Shown: piece by piece, positions 2,095-54,369 of the stretch | Numbering within the stretch: position 1 is the first letter of the stretch | Layout: each line of letters starts with the position of its first letter | Source: Candidatus Kuenenbacteria bacterium | Lineage (GTDB): Bacteria; Patescibacteriota; Patescibacteriia; UBA11705; JABHMO01 | Direction: 5' to 3' | Assembly: GCA_013202715.1 (NCBI GenBank) | Contig: JABMRF010000040.1 | Span: 4,376-68,375 of the forward strand | DNA: 64,000 nucleotides | Position numbers and translations under genes: made by a program | Notes under the pieces: generated by a model | What the model saw: the letters and a program-made list of their open reading frames with translations, nothing else | Database searches by the model: none | Told to the model about the DNA's origin: nothing

Positions 2095-3810
2095 CTACAG
2101 CAGTTCGAATTCAGAAGCTTCGGTTTCCACCTGAATGATCCTGAACTCGACCTTCATGTTGCTGAGCCACTCCTGCTCGCTCTTCGGAGCGCAGGGATGC
2201 GCACCGCACATGCCGCCGGCCGACTTCTCAAAGCCGTGGCCAACCACAGTGAACTGCGACTTGTCGAGCGTAATCCCCTTGGATGCTGCGTAGGCAACAA
2301 TGCTGTTGCGTACCGCATTTCCACGAGTCACACTCAGGTTTCTTGCGCCCTGCCGAATCTGCTTCAGCTTGGATGCCGGAGCACCGGCCTTCTTGGCCTT
2401 CAGGTAACCGAGCGGATCCGAGTGGCCTTCGACCACCATCACCGCGCCACCGAACGTTGACATCACATCGATTGCTTTGTCATATTCGGAAGCATACATG
2501 TTTGCCGTGAAATCGTTCTTGTTCGACTTGAAGAAAATCTTCAGCGTCGGAAAAATCTGCCCTGAAGACAGAGTTCCCTGACGCTGCTTTTGCGTTACGA
2601 CCGCAGCCAGCTTTTTCTCGTCATACTTCGGAGACTCGGCATGGTACTGCAGCTTTCCGCCGGAACGCATCACGGCATAGTCCCACTCAGCGTGCATCAG
2701 CGGGTAGGTCTTGTTCATCAGACCGAGCTCGGTAAACGCGGTCTGGATTTCGGCATTGACGTTCTGAAAGCTCCTCGCCTCGCTGGACTTGGTGAAAAAG
2801 GTTTCACTGTAAGCCAGCATGGCCGGGGTGCAGTCGAAGTACATGCCCTCAGAGTCGGCGAACGCCGCCGGATCCTCGATGATGTACTTGGCAAAAAATT
2901 TCACCGTTGCATTGTAAGTTTTCTTGTCCTTGTCCTTTCCATCGAAAACCTTGGCCATTGCTTCCTGCGCCTGAATGACGCCCTTGGCAAGCTCGAACAT
3001 CGCTGCCTTGTGAGCATTGAAATAATCGGACCGTACGACAAAGACATCGAAGATGACCTTGTCACCCGACTTGGTAGTCATCAGGATACGCGCACCCTTG
3101 CGAGTGCATTCCTGCATTTTGCACACCGTATCGGTGCCACCACCGGCCGCGCGAAGCGCGTCGGGGATGATCATGAAGGCCACATCGATCGACTTGTCCT
3201 TCTCGAATGCATCTGCCGGCGAATTTGTTCCGTACAGGTTGTCCTGCCAGACAAGAGTAACATCCTTGAATGAGAGGCCGACCGTTTTCAGAACTCGCCA
3301 CAGGAAATACAGGTGCGGACCATAGGCCTGAATGGCAATCCTCTTGCCATTCAGGTCTGCCGCGGTTTTGATACCTTCACGTACGACAATTGCGTCACCG
3401 CCCGTCGAACGGGTCAGGAGACCGGCAATCACCGGCTGAGTTCGCGGATCCTTGGCCATGATCGGCAGAGCCGCATTGACCATTCCGAGAGTTCCACGGA
3501 AGGTCGGGTTCTTGCCGGACATGTAGTCGTTCAGCATCTGCTGCGGATTGTTCTGCAGCTTGATGTTGAAACACAGGCCCAGCTTGTCGAAAATCGACCC
3601 CTTTGCGGTTCGCAGAGCATTGCCGTTACCGAAGGTAAAGGCATACTCCCCGCCCCAGGAAATCACGTGCAGGTCAATGCAACTGTTGTCAGTCACATTG
3701 CCCACCGGCGAATCCTTGAACGGCTTGAGCATCTGAGCGTTGGCAACGCCAGACCACATGAAACAAACTGCGAAAACGACTACGAGAATCTTGGCGGTGA
3801 AAGTCCTCAT
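2095..3810 (-). CDS. secreted NMT1/SsuA-like substrate-binding domain fused to C-terminal OmpA-like peptidoglycan-binding domain
   Basis: signal peptide ...GVANAQ; GGDAIVVREGI motif shared with the CDS at 1-1213; C-terminal VVEGHSDPLGYL...NLSVTRGNAVRNSIVAY resembles OmpA/MotB C-domain; AGGAGG RBS. Confidence 0.65.
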   Translation of the reverse strand: MRTFTAKILVVVFAVCFMWSGVANAQMLKPFKDSPVGNVTDNSCIDLHVISWGGEYAFTFGNGNALRTAKGSIFDKLGLCFNIKLQNNPQQMLNDYMSGKNPTFRGTLGMVNAALPIMAKDPRTQPVIAGLLTRSTGGDAIVVREGIKTAADLNGKRIAIQAYGPHLYFLWRVLKTVGLSFKDVTLVWQDNLYGTNSPADAFEKDKSIDVAFMIIPDALRAAGGGTDTVCKMQECTRKGARILMTTKSGDKVIFDVFVVRSDYFNAHKAAMFELAKGVIQAQEAMAKVFDGKDKDKKTYNATVKFFAKYIIEDPAAFADSEGMYFDCTPAMLAYSETFFTKSSEARSFQNVNAEIQTAFTELGLMNKTYPLMHAEWDYAVMRSGGKLQYHAESPKYDEKKLAAVVTQKQRQGTLSSGQIFPTLKIFFKSNKNDFTANMYASEYDKAIDVMSTFGGAVMVVEGHSDPLGYLKAKKAGAPASKLKQIRQGARNLSVTRGNAVRNSIVAYAASKGITLDKSQFTVVGHGFEKSAGGMCGAHPCAPKSEQEWLSNMKVEFRIIQVETEASEFELL

Positions 3811-5750: not shown

Positions 5751-7604
5751 TTATTCTAAAATAGCTTTAATCCTTCTCACACCTGCTGAGCTGGATTCTT
5801 CTTTTTTGATTCGGAACTTACCAAGCTCTCCAGTTTTTTGGGCATGCGGTCCGCCACACATTTCACAAGACACGTTTCCAATTGTGAAAACTTTTGCAAC
5901 GTGACCATACTTGTCTTCAAACAATCCAATTGCTCCTTTTTTCTTCGCATCATCAACTGCCATTTCCGCACAGCCAACTTCAAGATCATCTTTGATCCAA
6001 CCATTAACTAATTCTTCAACTTCTTTTTTTTGTTCGTCAGTCATTTTATCTAGATGTGTAAAATCAAATCGCAATCGGTCAGCGGTAATATTGCTACCCT
6101 TTTGCAGTGCATGAGGGCCAAGAACTTTTTGTAATGCGGCCTGGAGTAAGTGAGTTGCTGTGTGAAGTTTACAAGTTTCTTCCGATGCGTCAGCCAGTCC
6201 GCCTTTGAATCTTTGACCAGCGCCTTCTCGCGAAAGAGCCTGATGTTTTTCAAACTCAGCATCAAATTCTTTTTTGTCAAATTTAATTCCTTTTTCTTCT
6301 GCCAACTCTTCGGTCATTTCATATGGAAAACCATAAGTTGAAAACAAATCAAACGCTTCAGTTCCGGAAATATTATTGTCCTTGGACATTTTTTTGAACT
6401 CACGCAATCCTTTTTCCAGAGTTGTGGCAAATTTTTCTTCTTCTTTTGTTAATTGTTTCAAAATAAAATCTTTATTCTTCTTGAGTTCAGGATAAGTGTC
6501 CTGCATTATTTTAATAACAACTTCGGCAACCTTGTGAGTAAACACGCCTTCAATTCCAATTTGCTTGCCGTGCCTGATTGCTCTTCTAATTAAACGTCGC
6601 AAAATATATCCCTGGTCAACATTTGACGGTTCAATCCCCTTTTCATCACCAAGAATAAAAGTGGCAGCGCGAACGTGATCTACTATTACTCGAATTGATT
6701 TTTTTTCTTTTTCATAATTTGGATCATCTTTTTTTCCGTAAATGTCTGTATTGTCTACTCCTTCTTGACCAAGATATTTATATTTTCGGAGCATGTTAAC
6801 TTCTGCCACAATCGGTTCAATGTGCGGGCAATGATAATTATCAGGAAAGTCATTCAAAACTGAAACTGTTCTTTCCAATCCCATACCCGTATCCACGTTC
6901 CTCTGCTTCGCTTTTACATATTCATATTCTACTTTATCTGATTGGCTCTTGACTTTTGACTCTTGACTCTTGACTTTATTATATTCCATAAATACGTCGT
7001 TCCAAATCTCAACGTATTTACCACAACTGCAACTTGGCTGGCAGTCTTTGCCGCAAGCTTTTTTATCGGAAATATAAAACATTTCTGAGTCCGGTCCGCA
7101 TGGTCCTGTTTTTCCAGCCGGGCCCCACCAGTTTTCTTTTTTATTATATTTATAAATACGATCCTCGGGCATGCCAAGAGATTTCCAAGTATTGTAACTT
7201 TCTTCGTCAAAGGGAGCATCGTCGTCACCTTTAAAAACGGTCACAGCCAATCTGTCCAAAGGAATATCCAAAACATTTGTTAAAAATTCATAGCTCATTT
7301 CAATTGCTTCTTTCTTCCAGTAGTCGCCAAGTGACCAATTGCCCAGCATTTCAAAACAAGTAAAATGCCATTGATCTCCGACATCATCAATATCGCCAGT
7401 TCGAATACATTTTTGGAAATCAACCAATCGCGTTCCGGCTGGATGCTTTTCGCCCAATAAATATGGGACAAGAGGATGCATTCCGGCAGTTGTAAAAAGA
7501 CAGGTTGGATCATTTTCTGGAATCAAAGAAGCAGAAGGGATTATGGCGTGGCCCTTGTCTTTGAAAAAATTTAGGAATTTTTCACGAAGTTCGTGTGCGT
7601 GCAT
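5751..7604 (-). CDS. alaS: alanyl-tRNA synthetase (short form with catalytic and editing domains, no C-Ala domain)
   Basis: N-terminal class II AlaRS motifs (FTTAGMHPLVPY, WHFTCFEML), editing HxxxH...CGGPH; 617 aa. Confidence 0.85.
   Translation of the reverse strand: MHAHELREKFLNFFKDKGHAIIPSASLIPENDPTCLFTTAGMHPLVPYLLGEKHPAGTRLVDFQKCIRTGDIDDVGDQWHFTCFEMLGNWSLGDYWKKEAIEMSYEFLTNVLDIPLDRLAVTVFKGDDDAPFDEESYNTWKSLGMPEDRIYKYNKKENWWGPAGKTGPCGPDSEMFYISDKKACGKDCQPSCSCGKYVEIWNDVFMEYNKVKSQESKVKSQSDKVEYEYVKAKQRNVDTGMGLERTVSVLNDFPDNYHCPHIEPIVAEVNMLRKYKYLGQEGVDNTDIYGKKDDPNYEKEKKSIRVIVDHVRAATFILGDEKGIEPSNVDQGYILRRLIRRAIRHGKQIGIEGVFTHKVAEVVIKIMQDTYPELKKNKDFILKQLTKEEEKFATTLEKGLREFKKMSKDNNISGTEAFDLFSTYGFPYEMTEELAEEKGIKFDKKEFDAEFEKHQALSREGAGQRFKGGLADASEETCKLHTATHLLQAALQKVLGPHALQKGSNITADRLRFDFTHLDKMTDEQKKEVEELVNGWIKDDLEVGCAEMAVDDAKKKGAIGLFEDKYGHVAKVFTIGNVSCEMCGGPHAQKTGELGKFRIKKEESSSAGVRRIKAILE
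6946..6976. repeat. AGTCNNN heptamer tandem array inside alaS (in-frame, encodes KSQESKVKSQ-like insertion)
   Basis: ctcttgacttttgactcttgactcttgactt seen directly. Confidence 0.8.
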
Positions 7605-7611
7605 AGAGTTA

Positions 7612-7688
7612 AGTCTTGAGTCTAGAGTCTAGAGTCAATAGTCGGTAAAATAACTCTAGACTTTTGACTCTTGACTTTTGACTTGTAG
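7612..7688. repeat. two inverted arrays of AGTCNNN/TCTAGAC-type heptamers upstream of alaS
   Basis: agtcttgagtctagagtctagagtcaatagtc ... ctctagacttttgactcttgacttttgacttg. Confidence 0.8.
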
Positions 7689-7775
7689 TTTATGCTTCCA
7701 TAATAACCAAATTTAACCGAATTTGCAACCTCAATATTAACATTTATGTAAATTGAGACCAGAACCCAACAGCCA

Positions 7776-8322: not shown

Positions 8323-8447
8323 AAATATTTTCTATTTTTGATTTTGACTGTGGTTTTACATTTTTCATTTTGCATTATCACTTGACATATCCTCACAAAA
8401 CATCTAAACTAATTTAATACATTGTTAATCAGACAAGGAGGATAATA

Positions 8448-10816: not shown

Positions 10817-10923
10817 ATATAATAGGGCGAAAGAAGGCGAAAGAAGATAACCTTGCCTTCATAACTTTATTATTAAATACAAAATTAAGTATAACAAACA
10901 TTCCCTTAATTAACAATTGTGGA

Positions 10924-11350: not shown

Positions 11351-12583
11351 TTACAAATATTTTTTCAGTAAATTATAAACTTCCTCATAATTCATCCGGA
11401 TCTTGGCGCCCATTACCAAAGCGATTAATTCCCTGGTGGAACCCTTTGCCTGCATGACAAGATTGTAGCCTGCCTCATCTGTCCAGCCGGTTTTGCTGCC
11501 AGTCACATAGAGATCGCGATCGAGAAGCTTTATGCTGGTATTTTTCACCCAGTAAACAACATCTTTGTTGACCGGTACAACTTTGTACCACTTTGTGGTT
11601 GTGGCCTTGAGAATATCAATATTTTTAAATGCTCTTTTGGAAATAGCGGCCATTTCAAAAGCGGTGGAAACATTATTTTCATTCAATCCGGTGGGTTCAA
11701 CAAAGTGAGTGTTTGTTAGTCCAAATCCTTTTACTTTTTCATTCATCTTCTGAACAAACTCATCCAGAGTCAATCCGCTAGCGCGAACCAAAGAGTGAGT
11801 GGTATTATTTTTCGAGCCAACCAAGGTCGCATAAAATAAATCTTTGACTGTAATCTGATCGCCTTCTTTTGCCCAAAGTGAGGCGCCACCAACATAGTCG
11901 GACTTTTGCATGGTAATGATCTTGTCCCAACCAGGATTGTGATCAAGAAAAACCAAAACTGAAACTAATTTTGTCATGCTGGCAATCGGTCGAACATCAT
12001 TCATGTTCTTTTGGAAAATGATACTGCCGGAATTTTTATCAACCACTATTGCGGACTGCGCTGTCAAAGCCTCCGGATCATTTTCCAGAACAGCCACTTT
12101 CGCGTATGGAAAAATTGTTTTCGCTCGAATTAGTTTATTTTCATAATCTATTTCAGAAGGAAGCTCTCGCCATTTTTGCTGATGATTGTCGTAAAAATAA
12201 ATTGCTTTGTCCAGCTCATTATCACTTTCATAAGCCATGGAAATCAGCTGAGCACGCTCCATAAAGCCGGGGTTTTCTTTTCTAATGTCAAAAGTATAAA
12301 AACCTGAAACTGCTCTTTTCGTTTCAGGTAAATCATCAAAATTATCATTCCTGGAAATTTTTACTAATAATTTCCCTTGGTGAAAATTTGGAAAAATCGG
12401 CACCCAAAGTTGTTTGTCAACACTTTTTACTGTAAAACCGCGCTCTAAAGTTTGCTCATCAAAATCAATTATAACAGTATCAAACGTTTTTGCGTCTGCT
12501 GCTTGATATAGTGCGAAAAATAACACAAAAATCGAAACTAAAATTAGCCAACGTTTGAGATCCATACAATTAACAATTGACAT
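11351..12583 (-). CDS. D-alanyl-D-alanine carboxypeptidase (PBP5/6 family, peptidase S11) with N-terminal extension
   Basis: SxxK (ASMTK), SxN (GSKNN), KTG (GSKTGWT) motifs. Confidence 0.8.
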   Translation of the reverse strand: MSIVNCMDLKRWLILVSIFVLFFALYQAADAKTFDTVIIDFDEQTLERGFTVKSVDKQLWVPIFPNFHQGKLLVKISRNDNFDDLPETKRAVSGFYTFDIRKENPGFMERAQLISMAYESDNELDKAIYFYDNHQQKWRELPSEIDYENKLIRAKTIFPYAKVAVLENDPEALTAQSAIVVDKNSGSIIFQKNMNDVRPIASMTKLVSVLVFLDHNPGWDKIITMQKSDYVGGASLWAKEGDQITVKDLFYATLVGSKNNTTHSLVRASGLTLDEFVQKMNEKVKGFGLTNTHFVEPTGLNENNVSTAFEMAAISKRAFKNIDILKATTTKWYKVVPVNKDVVYWVKNTSIKLLDRDLYVTGSKTGWTDEAGYNLVMQAKGSTRELIALVMGAKIRMNYEEVYNLLKKYL

Positions 12584-19493: not shown

Positions 19494-20612
19494 CTATTCT
19501 ATGTCTCGCATTGCTAACCCAATGGAAGTAGCAAGACGAGGGCCTATAGACTCCAAGATTGGTTCCAAATCCTGTGGATAAATAATTCTGGCCCATGGAT
19601 TACCGATAAATGATCGTATTCCTAATTTATCTGTAAAATATTCCGATAAATTAAACAAACTTGCTGTCCCACCGGACAAGACAATTCTTTCTATTTTTTT
19701 ACCTTTATTATCAGGTTGTTCTAGATAAAAATTCTTTGTGTATTCAATTTCATCAATAATTGATTGGATTGGTCGCTCTATAATTTCCGGTAAAGTTTTT
19801 CCCTCTCCTAATGCTTCCGGATTGCTGGCCAAATCCCTTTTGAACTGTTCAGCCTGTTCAATAGAAATATTCAGAGTCTTAGAAATTTCATTGGTAATGG
19901 AAAGTCCGCCGACTCCGAGACTTCGGTTCAACAGAGGAATTGCATTTTCAACCACAGAAATATCTGTTCCCACAGCGCCAATGTCAACCAAAACCACAAC
20001 TGATTTATCTTTTCCAACCATCGATCGAGCCAAGGCAAATGATTCTGTTTCTAAACTGATTAAATCCAAACCTGCTTTCTTGAAAATTTGAATATATTTT
20101 TGCACAACTTCCTTTGCCGCTCCGGTCAACAAAACCTGTAGGTTTTTGATTTTGGCACCATCTCCTTTTGCTCCTTTGTCCTCTTTTAAAATATCTTCAT
20201 TGCCAATAACTTTCCAGTCCAAAATCATTTCTTCCAGTGGAAGCGGTAAGACTTTTTTTGCTTCCCATTCAACTGCAGCTGTCACTTTCTTTGGTGAAGC
20301 CAAATCCTTTTTGCTGATTTCAGACAAAGAAATAATTGAACTAAAAACTGCCGGCGCCGGGAGTGCGGTAATGGCTCTCTTTGTGATAACTTTTGATCGT
20401 TCCAAAACTTTCTTAATCATTTCCGCAGTTTTCTCCGGCTGATCAATCAATTTGGATCCCTCTCCAGACAAAGAACGCTCCAAATAACCATATGTTACCA
20501 ACTGCGCACGTCCATTGTTGTTAGTTAATTCAACCAACTTAATACTACTCCCACCGATGTCTACGCCAAGATAATTTGTATCTGCTGTTCCTTTTTTTGA
20601 AAATAAGCCCAT
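19494..20612 (-). CDS. pilM: type IV pilus assembly protein PilM (actin-like ATPase fold)
   Basis: YLGVDIGGSSIKLVEL..., actin/Hsp70 fold motifs; ORF-track start 20651 is TTG within a low-complexity CAAAG repeat. Confidence 0.85.
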   Translation of the reverse strand: MGLFSKKGTADTNYLGVDIGGSSIKLVELTNNNGRAQLVTYGYLERSLSGEGSKLIDQPEKTAEMIKKVLERSKVITKRAITALPAPAVFSSIISLSEISKKDLASPKKVTAAVEWEAKKVLPLPLEEMILDWKVIGNEDILKEDKGAKGDGAKIKNLQVLLTGAAKEVVQKYIQIFKKAGLDLISLETESFALARSMVGKDKSVVVLVDIGAVGTDISVVENAIPLLNRSLGVGGLSITNEISKTLNISIEQAEQFKRDLASNPEALGEGKTLPEIIERPIQSIIDEIEYTKNFYLEQPDNKGKKIERIVLSGGTASLFNLSEYFTDKLGIRSFIGNPWARIIYPQDLEPILESIGPRLATSIGLAMRDIE

Positions 20613-20722
20613 ATTTTTAGAAAAATTCAAAGCCCAAAATCCAAAATTCAAAGGAAATCTAAAGCTCCAAATTTAAATATAAAATATACCTTGGAATCTT
20701 AAATTTTTATTTTCGAATTTCC

Positions 20723-20756
20723 TTTGTGCTTTGTGCTTTGTATTTTGTATTTTATT
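20723..20756. repeat. TTTGTGC/TTTGTAT heptamer tandem array
   Basis: ctttgtgctttgtgctttgtattttgtatttt. Confidence 0.8.
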
Positions 20757-23359: not shown

Positions 23360-23770
23360 TTAATTCCCACTCCTTTTCTCATCAAGCGCCTCATTGACCA
23401 TCGCATCCGCCTCGGTATTATCTTCACGATAAATATGCTTGTATTCAATCTTTTTGAAATGACCTTGCAGATTGTGAATTTTTAAAAACTGTTGAGCTAA
23501 ATCCTGATTTTTAACCTTGTACTCGCCTTTGAGCTGTTTCACAACCAGCTCGCTATCTAATTTGAATTCCAATTCCGTTCCGCCAAGTTCTTTTGCTTTT
23601 TCCATCGCAAAAACAACGGCCTGATATTCAGCCTGATTATTTGTAGTTTCGCCAATGCATTTTCCTTCACTGAACAAAACTTCTTCTTTTTCATTTTTAA
23701 TGACAATGCCGATTGCAGCGGGTCCCGGATTTCCTCTCGCTCCCCCGTCGCAGTTTATTGCTAATTTCAT
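23360..23770 (-). CDS. rnhA: ribonuclease HI
   Basis: DGGARGNPGPAA, NNQAEY, REDNTEAD catalytic motifs. Confidence 0.85.
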   Translation of the reverse strand: MKLAINCDGGARGNPGPAAIGIVIKNEKEEVLFSEGKCIGETTNNQAEYQAVVFAMEKAKELGGTELEFKLDSELVVKQLKGEYKVKNQDLAQQFLKIHNLQGHFKKIEYKHIYREDNTEADAMVNEALDEKRSGN

Positions 23771-23782
23771 ATTGTGTTTATT

Positions 23783-23829
23783 ACTTTTAACTTTTACATT
23801 TTACATTTTACCTTTTACCTTTTACCTTC
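23783..23829. repeat. GGTAAAA-family heptamer tandem array (7 units) spanning the recJ stop and rnhA start
   Basis: cttttaacttttacattttacattttaccttttaccttttacc. Confidence 0.85.
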
Positions 23830-25544
23830 ATATCCACAGCCTTGAATTCAAACTCCCGATTTCCGTTCCATTCGTTGATTCCAAGTTCGCACACCACGTC
23901 TATTGTATCACCAACCCTTAACTTTTCCAACCATTCTTTCGCTTTTCCAAACCAAAGCATTTTATACAATTGTGGACCATCTTGTTTGAAATTAATTCGC
24001 AAATGAGTTTTGTCTTTTCCGATCGCATCCATGGCGACAACTTGTAAATTATTGATAATAAAGAGCGGCTTAGGATTTCTTTCACCAAATGGAGAAAATT
24101 TTTCAAGCTGGGCCAAAAAATCGAAATCAATTTGACTTGTCTTTACCTCAGCGTCAACTTCCAAGACAGGTTGCAAATCAAGATCAGCAAGTTCTTTTTC
24201 AGCATGCAAGGTAAAATCATTTTCAAATTGCTCGCGAACTTCTACTTCATTCAAAGTAAATCCACATGCGCCAGGATGGCCACCGAACCGAGCGAGATGA
24301 TCGCTGACTGTGCGCAGCCCTTCAGTAATATTAAATTCATCAATTGAACGACCGGAGCCAGTTACGTTTCCATTGCAAAGCGTCATCGCCACAGCCGGCC
24401 GATAATACTTGTCCGCCAGTCTTCCGGCGATAAGGCCGACAATTCCCGGTAACCAATTTTCATTATAAACAAAGATAATCTTTTTCTTTTCTATTTCCTC
24501 GAGCTGAGCAGTCGCCTCTTCCAGGGCGCCAATAATCACCTGCTGGCGAGCCTGATTATTTTCCTGCAATTCCTGAGCAATTCTCTCTGACTCCAGGGCG
24601 TCATCAGAAACTAATAATTCATAAGCCACACTGGCATGATTCATTCTCCCTGCGGCGTTGAGCCGAGGTGCAAGTTGAAAACCGATTGTAAAAGAATTGA
24701 TCCCCTTTGAACCAATTGATTCCAATAACTTTTGTAAACCGACCCAGCGCGTTTTCTCGAGAACTTTCAATCCCCACTTTACCAGGACTCTATTTTCGCC
24801 GATAATTGGTGAAACATCCGCAACAGTTCCAATGGCCACAATATCAAGCAACCATTTTTGAAAACCTGCCACCCCGCCGAACGTCATGAATTCATTTTCA
24901 TATTTACTAAGTTTCTCCGTATCACTCAAAATTGCTTGAACCAGCTTATATGCCACTCCAGCTCCAGCTAATTCCTGGAATGGGTATCCGCTGCCCCCCA
25001 CTTTTGGATCTAAAGTTGCAAAAGGTTTAGGTAAAACTTCCGGTGGTTCATGGTGATCTGTAACGATAACGTCAACACCCTTTTCGGTTAAATAAGCAAT
25101 TTCGTCCACATTTGTGATACCACAGTCAACTGTGATTAACAGTTTAGCTTTTTGAGCAATAAATGTGTTCAAGTTGTTCATGTTCAATCCATAGCCGTCC
25201 GTTTCTCTGTGCGGGATAAAGACCTGAGCATCAGCTCCAAGTAACTTCAAAGTACGAAATACGATAGCGGAACTGGTAACTCCGTCTGCATCATAGTCGC
25301 CGTGAATCAAAATCTTTTCTTTTTTTTCAATCGCCTGCCATACCCGCTCAACTGCCTTCTTCATATCTCTGAATAAAAAAGGATCATGGATCTTTTCGTA
25401 TCCAGGATCAAAAAAATCATCAATCTCTGATTGACTTTCTAAGCCTCTATTGTATAATAGTTGTGTAACAATTGGATGCTGGCCCTCAAATTTGTTTTTG
25501 AACTCGTCCGGTGGGGCATCCTTTACTTTCCAATTTTTAATCAT
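23808..25544 (-). CDS. recJ: single-stranded-DNA-specific exonuclease RecJ
   Basis: DHH motifs (HGDYDADGVTS, DHHEPPE), DHHA1 region; TAAAAT 6 nt before ATG. Confidence 0.85.
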   Translation of the reverse strand: MIKNWKVKDAPPDEFKNKFEGQHPIVTQLLYNRGLESQSEIDDFFDPGYEKIHDPFLFRDMKKAVERVWQAIEKKEKILIHGDYDADGVTSSAIVFRTLKLLGADAQVFIPHRETDGYGLNMNNLNTFIAQKAKLLITVDCGITNVDEIAYLTEKGVDVIVTDHHEPPEVLPKPFATLDPKVGGSGYPFQELAGAGVAYKLVQAILSDTEKLSKYENEFMTFGGVAGFQKWLLDIVAIGTVADVSPIIGENRVLVKWGLKVLEKTRWVGLQKLLESIGSKGINSFTIGFQLAPRLNAAGRMNHASVAYELLVSDDALESERIAQELQENNQARQQVIIGALEEATAQLEEIEKKKIIFVYNENWLPGIVGLIAGRLADKYYRPAVAMTLCNGNVTGSGRSIDEFNITEGLRTVSDHLARFGGHPGACGFTLNEVEVREQFENDFTLHAEKELADLDLQPVLEVDAEVKTSQIDFDFLAQLEKFSPFGERNPKPLFIINNLQVVAMDAIGKDKTHLRINFKQDGPQLYKMLWFGKAKEWLEKLRVGDTIDVVCELGINEWNGNREFEFKAVDMKVKGKR

Positions 25545-25719: not shown

Positions 25720-26397
25720 TTAGATTACATCCCAGCTAACGCCGGTAATCTTCAAGCCAACTTCTTTCAGCCCGGGATTAATCTTTTCCTGAAGAAGCTC
25801 CAGAAAAGCCTGTTTTTGCTCAGGCCGCTCGGGATTATGAAAATGAGCCAGTTCTTTTGAATAGGAATCATTGAAATCGTACAAGTAATATGAGATCCTT
25901 TTTTGCAATACCTCTTTTGACTCATCTTTTGTTATTGCGACTGGCAATTGCCGTTTATCCTGATGCTCTTCTTTATAGCATTGAGCAACATATGCCACAG
26001 CCAGTTCTGGGTCAATTATTTCAAAACCAACTGTATAGTTCAGCACACGAACCTTGGGATTGTCAGTGATCGGCCGAACCATTGATTCAACTTCTGCCGC
26101 TACGAGGTAGTTTACGCAATCCTGTCCGGTACAAAATACAAAATATTCACTTGTATCAACAACTTTACCATTTTCAATTTGCGCTACCCGATCTTCATCT
26201 GGTTTATTTGATAAAAACCGTGTATATTCCATGAATAAAGGTGAAAAAACCACCAGCGCTGTAATCGCGAAAGATAGCACAGTCGAAATTCTTAAAAAGC
26301 CTTCCAAGCGCTGATTTTTTACTGGTTTAACTTTTAGCATTACAAACGTCAAGACAACACAAACAACACACGCGCAAATCCATAGAAGTCCACCCAT
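25720..26397 (-). CDS. membrane-anchored hypothetical protein
   Basis: N-terminal TM helices; GGAGGTGA RBS. Confidence 0.5.
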   Translation of the reverse strand: MGGLLWICACVVCVVLTFVMLKVKPVKNQRLEGFLRISTVLSFAITALVVFSPLFMEYTRFLSNKPDEDRVAQIENGKVVDTSEYFVFCTGQDCVNYLVAAEVESMVRPITDNPKVRVLNYTVGFEIIDPELAVAYVAQCYKEEHQDKRQLPVAITKDESKEVLQKRISYYLYDFNDSYSKELAHFHNPERPEQKQAFLELLQEKINPGLKEVGLKITGVSWDVI

Positions 26398-35404: not shown

Positions 35405-35968
35405 TTAAACAATGACTTCGCCTTCACCTCCACTTGAAATTCCGGAAGCGTTCGCCTCATCGGTATCAATAACAATAGCAAAATCATAATCCTCTTTTAC
35501 CCTTACTTCAACTTCATCAAAAATTAAAGCTCTTGGTCCTTCAATTTTAACTTTAATCTTCTGAGCATTATTTAGATTCAATTCTGAAGCTCGATCCGGA
35601 TCAACTTTTAGGTGACGCATTGGAACAATAAGCCCTTCTTCAAGTTCTAACTCGCCTTTTGGTCCGACAACCTTGACCGGGCCGGAGCGAATAACTTTTC
35701 CGGACAATCTAAGCGGTGCATTCAAGCCAAGTCGATAGGCATCACTTTTTGAAACTTCGATTTGGGTGTGAATCTTGCACGGCCCGACAACTCTGACATT
35801 TTCCAGGGTTGTCTTTGATCCGACCAATTTAACAACATCCGAGCTGGTATATTCACCTGACGATAAATCTTTTTGTTTTTTCAGATCATAACCCTCCCCA
35901 AACAAGACCTCCAAATCATGTTGAGTAAAATGCGCATGTCGAGCTGATACTTCAATTTTTACATTCAT
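35405..35968 (-). CDS. PduL-type phosphate acetyl/propanoyl-transferase
   Basis: SARHAHFTQHDLEVLFG and PMRHLKVDP duplicated PduL motifs. Confidence 0.7.
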   Translation of the reverse strand: MNVKIEVSARHAHFTQHDLEVLFGEGYDLKKQKDLSSGEYTSSDVVKLVGSKTTLENVRVVGPCKIHTQIEVSKSDAYRLGLNAPLRLSGKVIRSGPVKVVGPKGELELEEGLIVPMRHLKVDPDRASELNLNNAQKIKVKIEGPRALIFDEVEVRVKEDYDFAIVIDTDEANASGISSGGEGEVIV

Positions 35969-35975
35969 ATACTTA

Positions 35976-36068
35976 TAAATTAGAAATTAGAAACTTGAAA
36001 CTAGGGTTAAGACTGGATTTTACATCCATTATTCCTACCCTAATTTCCAATTTCCAGTTTCCAGTTTC
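35976..36068. repeat. inverted pair of heptamer arrays (AAATTAG/AAACTTG vs GGAAATT/GGAAACT) in a divergent promoter region
   Basis: aaattagaaattagaaacttgaaactag ... ctaatttccaatttccagtttccagtttc. Confidence 0.75.
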
Positions 36069-36144
36069 TTCTTTCATTTACATTTTATCATATTTTACAG
36101 AAAAATGAAAACCCAACTGTTAAAACTGGTTGATAACTATAATA

Positions 36145-45292: not shown

Positions 45293-46345
45293 TTATAAAT
45301 TTAAGATGAGATTTTCTAATACTAATCTCGGGTTAATATTTTTTCGGAGAAGATCTTTGGTTTCTTCGATTCGCACAGCGAAATTTTTTAATCTTGTCTG
45401 AGAATAATCAGCCGCCGCTCTTTCCAATTTATTTTCAAGATAAGCATTAGCGATTAATTCATTTTTATAACTTGAAATCATGAGCACATCACGCGTCAAA
45501 GAGCTTAAATAATCCAACTTTTTCAACAAAACATCTTTTGATTTATTTTTATTAACAAAACCCTCAATAAATTTAAATTTTTCAACCGTTGACTGCGTAA
45601 AAACATTAAATAGTTCTAAATTGTCATTTTTATACTCCAAAAATCTGTTACTATCATTAAAAAATTTCATTGCCACCGTGGGTCTACCGCTGGCCACATT
45701 TGACAATTCCTTGGCGTAACTCCGATTTGCGCCCTTTCCAATCAGGTATTCATAAATATCCTTTTTTGTAACTGCTAAAAACTTGAAAGCCTGGCTACGT
45801 GACAAAATAGTTGGCAATAGCAACTCTTTGCTTGGGCTGATTAAAATTATAATTGTGCGCGGAGACGGCTCCTCGAGTGTTTTGAGTAAACAGTTGCTGG
45901 CTTCTTGATTTAATTTCTGCGCTTCAGGAATGATAACGATTTTATAGGAATTGAGAAATGCTCTTTTGCTTATTTTTTCAAGCAAATCACGAATCTGGGC
46001 AACGCTGATTAAACTCTTTTTTTTGCCCGTCTTTTCATCCACTTCCCTCTCCACTATGTAAAAATCCGCATAGATATTTTTTTCAAACTGATGACACGAA
46101 CTACATTCACCACAAGGAGCAATTAGATTGCTCTCCACTGTGCTCGCGGTCGGGCTGGAATAAGTCTGATATTTTTCACACAAAATCGTATTCGCAAAAG
46201 TTTTCGCAGTCAATGTTTTCCCGACTTTTTCAGGACCATAAAAAATATAAGCATGTGCTAATTTGTCATTAACAATACTGGTCTGCAAAAACTGTTTAAT
46301 TTTATGATGTCCAATAATTGGCCAGTTGAATTGGAGGCCGTTCAT
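45293..46345 (-). CDS. holB: DNA polymerase III delta' subunit
   Basis: HAYIFYGPEKVGKT, CGECSSC zinc module, LLKTLEEP, SRSQ sensor. Confidence 0.8.
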   Translation of the reverse strand: MNGLQFNWPIIGHHKIKQFLQTSIVNDKLAHAYIFYGPEKVGKTLTAKTFANTILCEKYQTYSSPTASTVESNLIAPCGECSSCHQFEKNIYADFYIVEREVDEKTGKKKSLISVAQIRDLLEKISKRAFLNSYKIVIIPEAQKLNQEASNCLLKTLEEPSPRTIIILISPSKELLLPTILSRSQAFKFLAVTKKDIYEYLIGKGANRSYAKELSNVASGRPTVAMKFFNDSNRFLEYKNDNLELFNVFTQSTVEKFKFIEGFVNKNKSKDVLLKKLDYLSSLTRDVLMISSYKNELIANAYLENKLERAAADYSQTRLKNFAVRIEETKDLLRKNINPRLVLENLILNL

Positions 46346-46388: not shown

Positions 46389-46432
46389 GTAATTGGGTAA
46401 TTGGGTAATTGGGTAATTGGGTAATTGGTAGT
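46389..46432. repeat. GGGTAATT octamer tandem array (5 units)
   Basis: gtaattgggtaattgggtaattgggtaattgggtaattgg. Confidence 0.9.
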
Positions 46433-46444: not shown

Positions 46445-47566
46445 TTACAGCGAAGCCAAATTACTAATAATTTCCAGAGTTTCTATTGCGCACTTTTCCC
46501 AAGAAAAGTTTTTCACATGTGAAAATCCTTTAATTTTCAATGATTCTTGAACCTCTGGGTTTAACAAAACCTGTTCTATTCGGGATACGATCTCATCCAC
46601 ATTTTCAGGATTAAACATTAGCGCGGCTTCACCTGCAACCTCTGGAAGACTTGTTGTCTTTGAACAAATGACAGGACAGCCTGTTGCCATTGCTTCTAAA
46701 ACTGGGATCCCAAATCCTTCGAATAAACTTGGAAAAATAAACAAATCTGCTCCGTTCAACCAAATTGGCAGCTCTTTGTCTTCGACCCAACCAGGAAAAA
46801 CAACTTGGTTCTGTAAATTATACTTATTTATATTTTCTTCAACTTTTTCGAACCCGAATCCTTTTTTCCCGATCAAAACCAGTTTATGTTTATCATCTGG
46901 ATTTTTTTGTTTAAATTTGCCAAAAGCTTCAACCAAGCGGGCTGTATTCTTCTTTTCCTCCAGCCGACCAATGAATAACATATAAGGCTGGTCAATCTTT
47001 TTTTCTAAATTTTCAATTGGTTTGTACTGTTTGTTGTTGAATCCATTCAAGATCACTTTTACTTTATCCTCTGCAATTTTATAAAACTGACAAATATCTT
47101 CTTTTGAATAGTTTGAAACTGTAATTATTTGATCAGCATGTTTTTTTATAAATCGAATTGTAAAGCGGTGGTAAAGTTTATCAGCCCAATGATAAAGTTT
47201 CGGGAAATGCTCAAAACCAATATCGTGGACTGTGACCACAACTTTTTTTGGATTTAATAATGGAATCGTATGCGCTGGAACAAACAGGACGTCCGGAATT
47301 CTTTTTCCAAACTTCATTTCCCAGCTTAGTCTTCCCAAAGTCCAAAATCGCGGTAACCACCATTTTAAAACCCGCTCTTCAAAATTATCAGGGCAATTTG
47401 CCAGATTGCCTTGCAGGGGTTTATCTGTATATAAAAAATAGTGGTTCTCCTTATCAATTTTTTTTAATTCTTCAATCAAATGATAAGAATACCACTCCAC
47501 ACCGGTCTTTTTTGGTTTGTTTGCGCGGGATGCGTCTATTCCAATTAACATATTACTTAGTCGCAA
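46445..47566 (-). CDS. family 1 (GT4) glycosyltransferase
   Basis: C-terminal GT1 motif FPSLFEGFGIPVLEAMATGCPVICS. Confidence 0.8.
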   Translation of the reverse strand: MRLSNMLIGIDASRANKPKKTGVEWYSYHLIEELKKIDKENHYFLYTDKPLQGNLANCPDNFEERVLKWWLPRFWTLGRLSWEMKFGKRIPDVLFVPAHTIPLLNPKKVVVTVHDIGFEHFPKLYHWADKLYHRFTIRFIKKHADQIITVSNYSKEDICQFYKIAEDKVKVILNGFNNKQYKPIENLEKKIDQPYMLFIGRLEEKKNTARLVEAFGKFKQKNPDDKHKLVLIGKKGFGFEKVEENINKYNLQNQVVFPGWVEDKELPIWLNGADLFIFPSLFEGFGIPVLEAMATGCPVICSKTTSLPEVAGEAALMFNPENVDEIVSRIEQVLLNPEVQESLKIKGFSHVKNFSWEKCAIETLEIISNLASL

Positions 47567-48560
47567 GTACTGACCGTTTATACATTTCCAAATTATCTAA
47601 AGCAATACCCGTTCCCTTGGCAACACACAAAAGGGCATCATCAGCTACGTAAACTGGGACACCGACTGCTCGGGAAATCAACTGATCAATATCGCGCAGC
47701 AAGCTGCTTCCTCCGGACATGATGATTCCCTTGTCAATCACATCGGCAGACAACTCCGGCGGGGTTTGTTGCAAAACTTCCTTCACAGCATCGACAATTC
47801 CCTGCAAGTCTTTTTGCAGAGCTTCGGTCGCGTCATTTGAACTGATACTGATCGTTTTCGGCAAACCGGTAATCATATCTCGACCACGAATATCAATTAT
47901 GGCTGGCCCCTCCGAGTACATGGCTGCACCAATTTCAATTTTAATATCTTCAGATGTTCGCTCTCCGATTGCCAAATTGTATTTACGACGAATATATTCT
48001 GAAATTGAATTATCAAATTTATTTCCGCCGATTCGCACTGAAGATGAGGCCACAATTCCACCCAAAGAAATAACCGCAATTTCTGAAGTTCCGCCACCAA
48101 TATCAATAATCATATGTCCGGAAGCACTTCCAATCGGAATATTCGCCCCGATTGCAGCGGCAATCGGCTCTTTGATAATATATGCGGCTCTGGCTCCGGC
48201 AGCAATAGTCGCATCAATAACTGATCTTCTTTCTACAGACGTAATGCCGGCCGGTACAGCAACCATAACCTCCGGTCGGAACAGTTTAATTCCGCCGAGC
48301 GCCTTATTAATAAAATAACGAAGCATCGCTTCAGTTGTTTTATAATCAGCAATCACGCCGTCTTTTAGCGGTCTGCTGGCAACAATCGTATCCGGAGTTC
48401 GGCCGATCATTTCCTTTGCTTCATCGCCAACTGCTAAGATCTTTTTGTCGGTCATCGAAATAGCAACAACAGAGGGCTCGTTGATCACGATCCCCCTTTT
48501 TGGCAGATGAACTAAGGTGTAAGTTGTGCCAAGATCAATTCCAATCTTTCGGATAAACAT
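47553..48560 (-). CDS. mreB: rod shape-determining protein MreB
   Basis: IGIDLGTTYT ... actin-fold ATPase motifs; 335 aa. Confidence 0.9.
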   Translation of the reverse strand: MFIRKIGIDLGTTYTLVHLPKRGIVINEPSVVAISMTDKKILAVGDEAKEMIGRTPDTIVASRPLKDGVIADYKTTEAMLRYFINKALGGIKLFRPEVMVAVPAGITSVERRSVIDATIAAGARAAYIIKEPIAAAIGANIPIGSASGHMIIDIGGGTSEIAVISLGGIVASSSVRIGGNKFDNSISEYIRRKYNLAIGERTSEDIKIEIGAAMYSEGPAIIDIRGRDMITGLPKTISISSNDATEALQKDLQGIVDAVKEVLQQTPPELSADVIDKGIIMSGGSSLLRDIDQLISRAVGVPVYVADDALLCVAKGTGIALDNLEMYKRSVLATK

Positions 48561-48581
48561 AATTTAATAACAAGTGACTAA

Positions 48582-49103
48582 TTACACTCCTCCTTTTTTC
48601 TGATCTTCTTTATATTCTTGCAATCGGTCAGCTTTTATTTTTGATGATTGCTCCAGAAAATATTTATTTACACCTGGAATCATTTTTAACCAGGATTTAA
48701 TCATATCAACGACTTTGTTCATCTTAACCTTAGCAGAATTTAATAAACTTTCAATACCCCTGGCTGTTTCCTCGCCTTTTTGTTTAAATTCAGTCTGCCG
48801 ATTTTCTGGTAATTCTTTATATAAATCTTCAAGTCCCTCTGATAAGATCGTCTCAATTTGAACCAAATCTTCACTTTTTGGTTCAGCTTCTGGAGCAGTT
48901 GGAACTGCTTGGTCCTCGGTTACTTGAACTGGGGCTACCGCCTGTACTTGTTCTGCCTGTTCGTCGGCAACCGCTTTTTCCGGTGCGTTTTCAACTTGTG
49001 GCTGTTCTTCTACCTTTATTTCTTTTTCAACATCAACCGGAACAACTTCTGGTTGTGGTAAATTAGCTTCCGGACTTGTAGCTTTTGTTTGTTTTGACTG
49101 CAT
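48582..49103 (-). CDS. hypothetical acidic/Pro-Glu-Gln-rich protein
   Basis: low-complexity N-terminal half; TACAAT 7 nt before ATG; sits directly downstream of mreB. Confidence 0.5.
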   Translation of the reverse strand: MQSKQTKATSPEANLPQPEVVPVDVEKEIKVEEQPQVENAPEKAVADEQAEQVQAVAPVQVTEDQAVPTAPEAEPKSEDLVQIETILSEGLEDLYKELPENRQTEFKQKGEETARGIESLLNSAKVKMNKVVDMIKSWLKMIPGVNKYFLEQSSKIKADRLQEYKEDQKKGGV

Positions 49104-49253
49104 ATTTGTTATTGTATCTTACTTTTAAAATCCAAAATAAGCAAATTACTTATACACTTATATTATACACTATTTATTAGTAAGTTGTAAGCTAAAAGGG
49201 AAAAGTTAAAAGCAACAAAAAAAACCCCTAATTTTACGGGAATAGACTCACCA

Positions 49254-49282
49254 TTGACTTTTCGCAGAAAGTATGCTATAAT
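49254..49282 (+). promoter_or_regulatory. consensus promoter TTGACT-17-tgcTATAAT
   Basis: TTGACT 49254-49259, TATAAT 49277-49282 with TGn. Confidence 0.7.
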
Positions 49283-49308
49283 ACTATGAACATTAAATGG
49301 AGGAAACC

Positions 49309-49572
49309 ATGGTAGATGCAATTGCAAGCCTTTGCATTTCACTCGGACTGATGCTGCTCCTGCTCCACGCAATCTGTTACATGGCCGGAGCAAAAAAGTT
49401 CGTGCCGAACATGATCAAAGGCTTCTTTCGGAGCCTCGGAGACATGGCCAGCTCGACCGTCCGAGGAGGATTTGGCGTTCTTGGAGCAATTCTGAGAGAA
49501 GGCCTTTTCGCCATTGGTCGCGGCTGCAGATGGGTCGTCGTTTCTCTCTGGAACAAGGCTCTCGGGCGATGA
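49309..49572 (+). CDS. small hydrophobic protein (88 aa), GC-rich
   Basis: GGAGG RBS before ATG 49309; hydrophobic N-terminal segment; terminator downstream. Confidence 0.55.
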   Translation: MVDAIASLCISLGLMLLLLHAICYMAGAKKFVPNMIKGFFRSLGDMASSTVRGGFGVLGAILREGLFAIGRGCRWVVVSLWNKALGR

Positions 49573-49591
49573 ACAAAAACATTCCAACTGG

Positions 49592-49625
49592 CACCGCTAT
49601 CTTATATAGCGGTGTCTTCTCTTTA
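49592..49625 (+). terminator. rho-independent terminator
   Basis: caccgctat-ctt-atagcggtg then U-rich tail. Confidence 0.6.
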
Positions 49626-49674
49626 CCCCGCGTCTTTAGACCGGGCTCGCGACAAAGAGTCCTGTCCTCCCTGT

Positions 49675-50628: not shown

Positions 50629-50651
50629 AGTCTTTATTCAAAAAACCAGCT

Positions 50652-50690
50652 CCGTTTCGAGTAACATCGAGAAGCGGAGCTTTTTTATTT
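50652..50690 (-). terminator. rho-independent terminator
   Basis: agctccg...cggagct with T-run on minus strand. Confidence 0.6.
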
Positions 50691-50706
50691 TACAAGATTG
50701 TTAAAC

Positions 50707-52503: not shown

Positions 52504-52579
52504 TTAACTTTATTTTTCGCAAGCCCCACCTTTCAACTCCGCTACGCTTCGCTCAAGACGTTACTTTTTCCTTTTATTT

Positions 52580-53725
52580 TTATCTTTTACAGGTTCCGCC
52601 AAACCAACCTAAATCAACAAAAATTTTGATCTGTCCTTGCCTTGAATCAAGAGCCTCCAACGCCTTGCCAACCACTGTGCCCGAATCAACAGCTTTCATT
52701 CCAAATCCGGGGACTGATGAAGCAGTTATAAAATCGCCGGCCTCAATCGATCCGTTTTCATTGTTCACATTTACCGGCACAATCCCGCTTAGCGCTACTG
52801 GCGCACTGTCAACTTCTGTATTTTGATTCAAAGTCATTGACGGATTGGAAGAAATAATTCCGATTACAGTTTTATGTCTGCTACTTGCTTTTATTAATTT
52901 TAAATCAGAATCAGTTGCCACAATATCACCAGCTTCAACTCGCCCGCTTTTCGCCATTTCTTCGGCCAAATCACCATCACAACCGGTACAGTCCTGATTC
53001 ACAATGAGTTTATCAGTAGTTAACGTATCGTAAACTCTGACCGGACCGTAAAATTTTCCAGCGAAATATTTTCCACCGGCTCGAATTCCTGTTCCGTCCA
53101 GACCAAGTTCAGCATACCCTTCAACATTTCCTTTTTTGTTATATGCGCCCACCGCAATCGGATTTGTTCCTGATTCGAAAAAATTTAATTTTGTTTCTGA
53201 ATAAAGTATGTTTGATTTTTTTAATTTTGAATACAAACCAACTTTTTCCGCCTCAACCACCAAACCGTATGAATCTCCGAACATTGTAGCGGCGGCGGCT
53301 TTTCCGATAACATTAATTCCCACTCCGTAAAAATTATCATTTCTAAAATAGCCCGGATAAGAATTAATTCCGTCAATTTGCGAGTTGATGCCCTTGAATG
53401 ATGACTTGTTTCCTTCGATAAAAATCGCATCTGTATTATCATTTAAATTTACTTCCACGTTTGTTTTACTGTTCAAAGTTTTAATCGCCCCAGTCGTACC
53501 ACTTCCAACTGCTAACCCGTAACCGACTCCCGGATCAATATCTAGAATACCTAAACCGCCTTGCTTGACCTGATTATTAACGCTAACATTAATCGGCGCT
53601 TCAACATTTCCTGCTGGCGGAGAGGCAGACGGTTCGGTCCAAGCAAAAACCTGATTGATCATCAAGACACAACCAAATAAGCTAACTAAAATTACAAAAT
53701 TCAAAAACATTATTTTGTGTTTCAT
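52580..53725 (-). CDS. secreted hypothetical protein with WTEPSASPPAGNV N-terminal motif
   Basis: signal peptide; Gly/Asn-rich beta-type composition. Confidence 0.55.
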   Translation of the reverse strand: MKHKIMFLNFVILVSLFGCVLMINQVFAWTEPSASPPAGNVEAPINVSVNNQVKQGGLGILDIDPGVGYGLAVGSGTTGAIKTLNSKTNVEVNLNDNTDAIFIEGNKSSFKGINSQIDGINSYPGYFRNDNFYGVGINVIGKAAAATMFGDSYGLVVEAEKVGLYSKLKKSNILYSETKLNFFESGTNPIAVGAYNKKGNVEGYAELGLDGTGIRAGGKYFAGKFYGPVRVYDTLTTDKLIVNQDCTGCDGDLAEEMAKSGRVEAGDIVATDSDLKLIKASSRHKTVIGIISSNPSMTLNQNTEVDSAPVALSGIVPVNVNNENGSIEAGDFITASSVPGFGMKAVDSGTVVGKALEALDSRQGQIKIFVDLGWFGGTCKR

Positions 53726-53804: not shown

Positions 53805-54317
53805 ATGAAAAGCGCACCTACAATTATTGTTGTCATTATTTTAATGCTCCTAATCGGGATGATTGGTTTTGTAATTGGTTTATATGTTGGCAAAGGAAAT
53901 TCGTTTGAATCTAAACTAAAACAAGAAAAAGCAGAGGTTATTCAAAATCTGAATAAAAACATTGAATCAATCCCGGGCGTTTCCGTTCTCGAGCAACCTG
54001 AAGATTATCTCATCGGTTCAATTAAAAAAATTGAAAAAAATGTTCTAACAATTTCTTCTGCTCCGGCAACCGTTGAAGATTTGCTCGAGGGAGAGGAAAA
54101 AATATATGAAATCAAAATTTCCTCACAAACAAAAATCTTTTATCAGGAAATTGGAGAAGACCCAGTTTTAACTGAGGATGAACCAGGCCAACTTGTAACG
54201 GAGCATCTGCTAACTATTCAAGACTTGCAGGTTAATGAACAAGTCTCCATCTTCATTAATATTAAAACCAAAAATCAACCGTTGGTTGAAGCGCTGGAAA
54301 TTAAAGTAAATAGGTAA
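53805..54317 (+). CDS. membrane-anchored hypothetical protein
   Basis: TGTGATATAAT extended -10 ends 7 nt before ATG 53805; N-terminal TM helix. Confidence 0.5.
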   Translation: MKSAPTIIVVIILMLLIGMIGFVIGLYVGKGNSFESKLKQEKAEVIQNLNKNIESIPGVSVLEQPEDYLIGSIKKIEKNVLTISSAPATVEDLLEGEEKIYEIKISSQTKIFYQEIGEDPVLTEDEPGQLVTEHLLTIQDLQVNEQVSIFINIKTKNQPLVEALEIKVNR

Positions 54318-54341
54318 AATGTAAAAAGTAAAAGTATAAAA
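54305..54341. repeat. GGTAAAA-family heptamer array at the 3' end of the 53805 gene
   Basis: agtaaataggtaaaatgtaaaaagtaaaagtataaaaaa. Confidence 0.8.
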
Positions 54342-54369
54342 AAGACAGCCTTTAATCGGCTGTTTTTTT
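54337..54369. terminator. bidirectional terminator
   Basis: gacagcc-tttaatc-ggctgt plus T7, A-run upstream. Confidence 0.7.

Follow-up and report, generated by a model that had tools for sequence, protein, structure and literature searches.

Why should a tandem heptamer of the GGTAAAA type recur at gene ends in a genome of the Candidate Phyla Radiation (CPR), and does it serve a function there? The question is raised by a 64,000-nucleotide (nt) stretch of DNA from Candidatus Kuenenbacteria bacterium (contig JABMRF010000040.1; the whole stretch is hereafter called the window), in which such arrays lie at the recJ/rnhA junction, upstream of cysS, at the 3' end of a gene encoding 179 amino acids (aa), and within grpE (sites 1 to 4, respectively). 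A sequence-only reading of the window had proposed that the arrays could act as Shine-Dalgarno (SD)-like translation enhancers or, alternatively, that they are a microsatellite tolerated in coding DNA. On balance we favour, as probable rather than secure, a single slippage-driven heptanucleotide microsatellite family that would be resized by whole units, eroded by point mutation, and replaced or homogenised between lineages.

Heptamer arrays at four gene ends

The presence of heptamer arrays at all four sites was borne out by both the sequence and Tandem Repeats Finder, which placed site 1 at 23784-23828 (period 7, 6.4 copies, 92% matches), site 2 at 52479-52511 (4.7 copies), site 3 at 54303-54333 (4.3 copies) and site 4 at 59942-59978 (5.4 copies). 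With 75-92% matches across the four arrays, these are imperfect repeats. The gene names recJ, rnhA, cysS and grpE assigned from the sequence are correct, as are the encoded peptides, ...DMKVKGKR* in RecJ and MAEKKVKRSKVKGKSK in GrpE. The arrays and the features around them are as follows.

23783..23829, minus strand: array 1; sense (GGTAAAA)x3 (TGTAAAA)x2 GTTAAAA GTAA
52478..52511, minus strand: array 2; sense GTTAAAA GGTAAAA TGTAAAA GTTAAAA GTA
54303..54342, plus strand: array 3; plus strand AAAGTAA ATAGGTAAAA TGTAAAA AGTAAAA GTATAAAA
59942..59982, minus strand: array 4, inside grpE (ATG 59987-59989); GTTAAAA GGTCAAA GGTAAAA GGTAAAA GTAAAG
52571..52589, minus strand: weak fifth member, itself a Tandem Repeats Finder row; TGTAAAA GATAAAA ATAAAAG
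54345..54363, strand unassigned: terminator-like hairpin ACAGCCGATTAAAGGCTGT with T-runs on both sides; -14.5 kcal/mol, z -2.4
23808-25544, minus strand: recJ
23360-23770, minus strand: rnhA
51070-52449, minus strand: cysS
59438-59989, minus strand: grpE, in an hrcA-grpE-dnaK-dnaJ cluster

The first 2.7 units of array 1 encode the RecJ tail KVKGKR and its TAA stop (23808-23810), and the remainder occupies the 37-nt recJ-rnhA spacer. The array had been described as spanning both the recJ stop and the rnhA start; it does cover the former, but it ends 12 nt before the rnhA ATG (23768-23770). Array 2 lies within the 130-nt spacer upstream of cysS (ATG 52447-52449) and includes an exact copy of a 24-nt core at 52478-52501; its degenerate tail GGGTAAAAAAAG reaches ~52464, and the gap to the ATG is ~21-28 nt. 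In array 3, the GGTAAAA unit holds the TAA stop (54315-54317) of the 179-aa gene (53778-54317), and the terminator-like hairpin follows directly, between this gene and the convergent dnaJ. This hairpin is the only structured element adjoining any of the four arrays. Array 3 is inverted on the chromosome compared to the other three and reads GGTAAAA on the plus strand. The common orientation noted earlier therefore holds only relative to transcription of the local gene, because gene 53778-54317 is itself on the plus strand. Array 4 encodes approximately codons 4-16 of GrpE (KKVKRSKVKGKSK), with variant units (TCA, AGT) that avoid an in-frame TAA. The fifth member spans the TAA stop (52580-52582) of a 381-aa gene upstream of cysS, whose protein ends in ...TCKR*.

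Both the period and the placement of the arrays are non-random. A period scan of the window found 6 strong period-7 arrays, compared to 0 in 20 dinucleotide-preserving shuffles, and 0-1 arrays at each other period from 4 to 15. The 24-nt sense core GGTAAAATGTAAAAGTTAAAAGTA matched at the four sites only (≤3 mismatches, 0 expected, 5 overlapping matches). All four arrays lie ≤25 nt from a gene start or stop, giving p ~6e-4 under random placement, since a random 41-nt segment falls near a gene end with probability 0.154.

The four loci are all present, but they are not isolated, given the weak fifth member and ~15 further period-7 arrays with other units. Tandem Repeats Finder returned 23 period-7 rows in the window with units such as TTGACTC, TAGAGTC, AAAATCC, CTTTGTG, TAGAGAT, TTAGAAA and AATTTCC, and period-8 and period-10 arrays are also present. 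Period-7 arrays cover 3.3% of intergenic versus 0.42% of coding bases, and arrays of periods 7-10 cover 6.1% versus 0.68%; intergenic array density is 8-9 times coding density, with an array in 12 of 51 spacers. The arrays are therefore one heptanucleotide family among many in the window, and two looser relatives of the GGTAAAA type occur elsewhere.

8354..8376, minus strand: looser relative in an intergenic spacer; sense TGCAAAA TGAAAAA TGTAAAA
12566..12602, minus strand: looser relative at the start of gene 11351-12583; sense GGTCAAA TGTTAAA TGTCAAT

Across a background of 1.3 Mb drawn from 80 unrelated genomes, period 7 again led the tandem periods, at a density ~8-fold below that of the window; this set came from a scan of GTDB representatives with CysS, in which the best match was 61% and no close relative was found. 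Period 7 dominates in relatives and in further CPR genomes as well, where several loci have recurring heptamer units of their own. The unit AGTATCG/CGATACT recurs in three syntenic metagenome-assembled genomes (MAGs), one labelled Patescibacteria (L064) and two Gammaproteobacteria (L049 and L083), while L031 carries recurring TACATTT/CCATTTT arrays (x6.6 and x8) and L067 carries AATTTCA-type arrays. In a Chloroflexota contig of 61% GC (L018), ~7 period-7 arrays lie within 12 kb, including a perfect (GGATTTT)x5.4.

Orthologous loci in relatives

The relatives L092 (RecJ 75% identical) and L088 were compared with the window, and GrpE was compared in three species (100, 80 and 72% identical). At the recJ-rnhA junction the window reads GAA (GGTAAAA)x3 (TGTAAAA)x2 GTTAAAA GTAATAAACACAATATG and L092 reads GAA GGTAAAA TGTAAAA GCTAAAA GTAATAAGCACAATATG. 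Six units in the window thus correspond to three in L092, a difference of exactly three whole units (21 nt), and when the extra units are left aside 39 of 41 positions agree. On this alignment, the site-1 difference is a whole-unit expansion. RecJ is of equal length in both species, ending in KVKGKR* in the window and KVKCKS* in L092, since the third unit invariably places its TAA in frame.

In other lineages, the junction carries an array with different units. In the Falkowbacteria locus L099 it reads GGTTAGAA GTTAGAA TCTAGAA AGTAGAA AATAGAA TTTAGAA (NNTAGAA x6), with the recJ stop (TAG) falling inside a repeat unit, and in L093 and L095 it carries TAATTAAC-type repeats. In L094, no rnhA follows recJ and no array is found there.

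At the other intergenic sites the arrays are not shared. The L088 spacer orthologous to site 2 is not alignable and holds (GTGAATTA)x4.9, a period-8 array, while the L088 ortholog of the site-3 gene has an unchanged protein end (EIKVNR*) and also a terminator hairpin, with no array. The grpE array, in contrast, has equal length in all three species. Three of the five codons changed between the window and L088 are synonymous, and the period-7 self-identity of the array falls from 0.74 to 0.66 to 0.57 across the three species. Judged from these comparisons, the GrpE tail is kept as protein while the DNA repeat is decaying through mostly synonymous change. In more distant CPR GrpE proteins the N-termini are unrelated and variable in length, marking the region as hypervariable. 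Largely, then, the proposal of a microsatellite tolerated in coding DNA has held up: the recJ-rnhA array has 3 or 6 units, units are lineage-specific, arrays turn over elsewhere, and coding overlaps are confined to tolerant protein ends.

Some further observations concern these junctions and similar units. In a third species (L095-L097), two AT-rich repeat blocks in the 90-nt recJ-rnhA spacer flank a GC-rich segment, CGTCCGATGCCGAAAAGCGGATACGGACTCCGCACTTTCGTCGGAG; judged by eye only, this segment has the look of an inserted hairpin. Upstream of gene 19494-20651 and its ortholog, an extended -10 motif, TGATATAAT, is common to both species; in the window it is followed by (CACAAAG/ATACAAA)n on the sense strand (20722-20753). 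In L092 (10466-10489) the sense strand carries the reverse-complement type (TGTGATT TGTTGTT TGTGGTT), a similar unit in the opposite orientation.

Slippage weighed against functional readings

We infer slippage as the generating process from the whole-unit difference at site 1. In the A-rich DNA of gene ends, slipped-strand mispairing by whole units would make and resize the arrays, which would then diverge by point mutation and, between lineages, undergo replacement or unit homogenisation. The arrays would be nearly neutral, and their placement would reflect what is tolerated rather than a demonstrated function. A TAA lies in every GGTAAAA unit and, because 7 mod 3 = 1, three successive units place a stop in each of the three reading frames; as a consequence, overlap with the 3' end of a gene is limited to two units plus four bases (~18 nt), and the array supplies the stop. 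Stop codons supplied by a repeat unit are found in recJ (AAG GTA AAA GGT AAA AGG TAA), the 179-aa gene (AAT AGG TAA) and the 381-aa gene (TGT AAA AGA TAA), and since three window genes end in this way, caution is warranted for gene callers. Within a gene, survival of an array would require both a protein end that tolerates it and variant units free of an in-frame TAA. The grpE array appears to persist because GGTCAAA and a shortened unit (AGT AAA) avoid TAA and because the N-terminus is tolerant, and it would then evolve as ordinary coding sequence.

Several observations weigh against this explanation. The same order of unit variants, GGT-TGT-GTT-GTA, is found at sites 2 and 3 and in the ancestral form of site 1, which independent local slippage does not predict and which would point to inter-locus copying or to selection for the composite. 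Site 1, array and spacer together, is 95% conserved between two species, compared to ~80-89% in the flanking coding DNA, while other spacers between the same two species cannot be aligned and other shared junctions are rewritten; this conservation is a hint of constraint. In addition, four or five lineages have a tandem array at the recJ-rnhA junction, so that the array as such could be selected. Current activity also appears limited. Among identical or near-identical contigs from four samples (JGI samples 3300032731 and 3300032738; runs SRR28106059 and SRR28106066) the arrays were identical, and the relative's four assemblies likewise agreed at 100%, each comparison being between consensus contigs of essentially one strain. 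Copy-number invariance, which the sequence-only reading would count towards refutation, is therefore present only in a trivial sense. A strain search with exact RNase H, GrpE and CysS returned only identical sequence at the arrays, and a search with exact RecJ found no record. As the arrays are imperfect, they do not seem to be highly active now.

Drawing on the variant order, the 95% spacer conservation and the junction recurrence, a functional or mobile reading of the arrays retains a small but real share of probability. In one form of it, CPR heptamer arrays would be genome-specific families acting as a functional punctuation system for SD-poor operons, in which the 24-nt composite (GGTAAAA-TGTAAAA-GTTAAAA-GTA) would be copied by a templated mechanism or held by a single-strand nucleic-acid-binding protein. 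This would account for the variant order at three loci, the conservation of the site-1 spacer and the recurrence at recJ-rnhA across Kuenenbacteria and Falkowbacteria, but we consider it rather doubtful.

The proposed SD-like enhancer did not stand up to closer inspection. The genome is SD-poor: a 4-nt SD core lies 7-17 nt upstream of 10 of 65 genes, compared to 14.5% at random positions, and rnhA, cysS, grpE, dnaK and dnaJ have no SD core in their -17 to -7 windows. The AGGT/AAGG cores of the arrays are 27-52 nt upstream of the ATGs, whereas SD placement would be ~5-13 nt; site 3 has no downstream gene and is followed by the terminator hairpin; and orthologous arrays in relatives are built of GTGAATTA, NNTAGAA or TAATTAAC units, none with an SD-like core. 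The arrays are therefore probably not SD-like enhancers. Strong GGAGG sites nevertheless occur at a handful of genes, among them upstream of 2095-3810, 25720-26397, 60802-61200 and 61243-62223.

An SD-independent role is another reading, in line with the SD-poor genome. The arrays might provide functional leaders, as unstructured A-rich mRNA or as multivalent sites for S1 or a cold-shock protein, that aid initiation of rnhA and cysS or keep the grpE start open. Consistent with this, RNA folding gave only 0 to -2.7 kcal/mol for the GGTAAAA arrays (z ≥ 0) on either strand; as modelled, they are unstructured as RNA, which is compatible with an open-leader role and no demonstration of it. The lack of an SD at rnhA, cysS and grpE, the sense-strand position of GGTAAAA at all four sites, the recurrence of a recJ-rnhA array with differing units, the conserved site-1 spacer and the analogy with TAACTGA repeats (PMC4679880) all argue in the same direction. 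Site 3, however, adjoins a terminator with no gene to lead into, and arrays 1 and 2 end 12 and ~21-28 nt from the ATG, away from the ribosome-binding position. Synonymous changes have eroded the grpE repeat, which argues that the DNA or RNA repeat is not under selection there, and the closest relative lacks conserved counterparts of sites 2 and 3. The four-of-four orientation has p = 0.125 and does not extend to a general rule: among 44 period-7 arrays with a defined transcription direction 25 are A-rich and 17 T-rich, and in L031 TTTTACA/TTTTACC arrays lie on the sense strand, in the opposite sense to the GGTAAAA type. Finally, only 12 of 51 spacers have an array at all. We regard a leader function as unlikely, although by no means negligible. 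A known structured RNA family was also rejected, as an Rfam scan of the whole window gave no matches at the gathering threshold and the arrays fold no better than shuffles; there are no tRNA genes in the window.

At the DNA level, the arrays could be part of a promoter (with a -10-like TAAAAT at GGTAAAA-T junctions), an UP-like A-tract, or a site for a transcription factor or nucleoid protein. All arrays do carry A4 tracts every 7 bp, and site 2 has TTGCGA-17-TAAAAT on the sense strand (9/12). This weak match is the only promoter-like one among the four arrays, however, and totals in the two comparisons are near shuffle expectation (29 versus 22.7, and 25 versus 14.3), for which reason the promoter reading was rejected. 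Promoters are matched better away from the arrays, as by the TTGACG-17-TAAAAT with a preceding TG in front of hrcA, the 7-bp spacing is out of helical phase, and the units are wholly different at orthologous junctions; a DNA-level site is accordingly improbable. Protein-level selection would make the Lys-rich tails (KVKGKR on RecJ, KKVKRSKVKGKSK on GrpE) the useful product and the DNA periodicity a by-product. In support, three species have kept the GrpE tail while its codons changed mostly synonymously, and a short basic tail follows D[LM]K in all RecJ relatives. Such selection covers the coding fraction at most, as arrays 1-3 are mostly non-coding. The N-termini of more distant GrpE proteins are unrelated, and the genome-wide dominance of period 7 is left unexplained, making such selection very improbable. 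Hardly credible, in our judgement, are contingency (phase-variation) loci, in which unit number would switch or tune expression as in the 7-bp repeats of Haemophilus hmw promoters. In favour of this, 7 nt is not divisible by 3, the unit count at site 1 differs between species, and a heptanucleotide case is described for Haemophilus (PMC8262952, PMC2651432). The genes concerned (recJ, rnhA, cysS, grpE) are housekeeping genes, though, and the arrays are short and imperfect, do not differ among assemblies from four samples, and in grpE have a fixed length in three species; moreover, the site-1 expansion leaves RecJ unaltered because of the all-frame TAA.

Known heptamer repeats and other elements

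Heptamer simple sequence repeats (SSRs) are described as over-represented in bacteria, with polymerase slippage put forward as a hypothesis (PMC4692102, citing Mrazek 2007). The arrays have three features of bacterial heptanucleotide SSRs, namely tandem 7-nt copies beyond chance, whole-unit change and intergenic enrichment. Their closest match is the family of TAACTGA direct repeats found in marine Beggiatoaceae, some Cyanobacteria and Bacteroidetes (MacGregor 2015, PMC4679880), for which the all-frame-stop geometry and the ~18-nt overlap limit were derived and a role in single-strand, SD-independent initiation was proposed. As in that family, a 7-nt unit is present in 2-6 copies per set, with sets "split" by related heptamers, at many dispersed and mostly intergenic loci, with a few copies inside open reading frames (ORFs) at protein ends. 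The window arrays also share stops in three frames in the forward orientation, an overlap of ≤~18 nt with the upstream ORF, whose stop they supply, downstream genes that are mostly without SD and include housekeeping genes, and no predicted RNA structure. They differ in their units (GGTAAAA, TGTAAAA, GTTAAAA) and CPR host, in a gap to the ATG of 12-28 nt compared to a mode of ~1 nt, and in belonging to a genome with several unrelated heptamer families rather than one. In addition, one forward-orientation array lies inside a gene (grpE), with units mutated to avoid TAA.

Heterocystous cyanobacteria carry tandem heptanucleotides known as short tandemly repeated repetitive (STRR) sequences (Mazel et al. 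1990, cited in PMC4692102). They resemble the window arrays in having several unit families per genome that are dispersed and mostly intergenic, but differ in unit and phylum, and STRR arrays can be much longer. The STRR units are CCCCAGT, TTGGTCA and CAACAGT. A cyanobacterial origin was rejected, as the cyanobacterial marker HIP1 has only 3 copies in the window, gene order is that of Patescibacteria MAGs and the units differ; identical GrpE and RNase H sequences carry the NCBI name Candidatus Kuenenbacteria bacterium. The GGGAATC and GGGGA(C/T)T heptamers of Xanthomonas and Nostoc (Rehm et al. 2015, PMC4692102) likewise show extensive length and sequence variation between species, some arrays arranged as inverted pairs, and no tie to pathogenicity genes, but they are G-rich and form G-quadruplexes, whereas GGTAAAA is unstructured and cannot do so. 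The phase-variable heptanucleotide SSRs described for the hmw1A and hmw2A promoters of Haemophilus influenzae (PMC8262952, PMC2651432) are also tandem 7-nt units near gene starts with slippage-type change in unit number. Those repeats, however, are long, perfect, located in surface-protein genes and polymorphic within populations, while the window arrays are short and imperfect, adjoin housekeeping genes and show no polymorphism among consensus contigs.

Since unit and host differ, the arrays fall outside the TAACTGA, STRR and GGGAATC families. By analogy, they are best read as a CPR counterpart of these repeats, and they belong to the broad class of bacterial heptanucleotide SSRs. No earlier account of such arrays in Patescibacteria turned up in the literature that could be searched. 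What the orthologous CPR junctions display is the dynamics of such repeats: whole-unit expansion, a lineage-specific unit at one junction, and capture into coding ends followed by freezing. If functional, the arrays would bear on translation start and operon punctuation in SD-poor, reduced CPR genomes; if neutral, they are still useful strain markers and a known cause of assembly breaks.

Regarding repeats and strain-level differences, the window contains a perfect (GTAATTGG)x5 array of period 8 at 46389-46428, in the spacer between genes 45293-46345 and 46445-47566. An independent contig, L005, ends inside this array, which may therefore break assemblies or vary in length. Contig L006 equals the window over 48166-55957 except for one single-nucleotide polymorphism (53940), but has 34 substitutions in the 117 nt of 48049-48165, beyond which homology is lost; this boundary adjoins mreB and glycosyltransferase genes and looks like a strain-level recombination boundary.

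Other repeat elements differ from the GGTAAAA arrays in structure. Where heptamer arrays occur as inverted pairs, folding predicts long hairpins with periodic bulges (-29 to -34.5 kcal/mol, z -5.4 to -6.0), at three places:

Window 7600-7690, minus strand: inverted-pair hairpin
Window 35965-36075, minus strand: inverted-pair hairpin
L088 10598-10700: inverted-pair hairpin

Despite lying at non-orthologous loci, the window element at 35965-36075 and the element in the L088 grpE-dnaK spacer have arms (GAAACTG/CAGTTTC) and a core (GGGUAG...CCCU) in common; from the modelled folds, this hairpin looks like a dispersed element that members of the genus share. A second repeat class, distinct from the heptamers, consists of period-10 arrays with abundant CGCGGAT or GGCGAA, at 54370-54409, 55503-55532 and 10826-10846 of the window and at 12630-12660 of L088. 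One of them, (ACGCGGATNN)x4, directly follows the dnaJ stop, another lies just upstream of the dnaJ start, and downstream of the relative's dnaK lies a similar GCGGATTTAAC array.

The region upstream of hrcA also differs between the two genomes. In L088 (9255-9281) it holds a perfect CIRCE (controlling inverted repeat of chaperone expression) operator, TTAGCACTC-N9-GAGTGCTAA, while no match to the CIRCE consensus was found anywhere in the window at ≤2 mismatches. In the window region upstream of hrcA (60689-60790) the right arm alone, GAGTGCTAA, is present, overlapping the TTGACG-17-TAAAAT promoter. The window region further contains an inverted repeat with a 13-bp stem at 60760-60789, and the HrcA encoded in the window is only 230 aa long.

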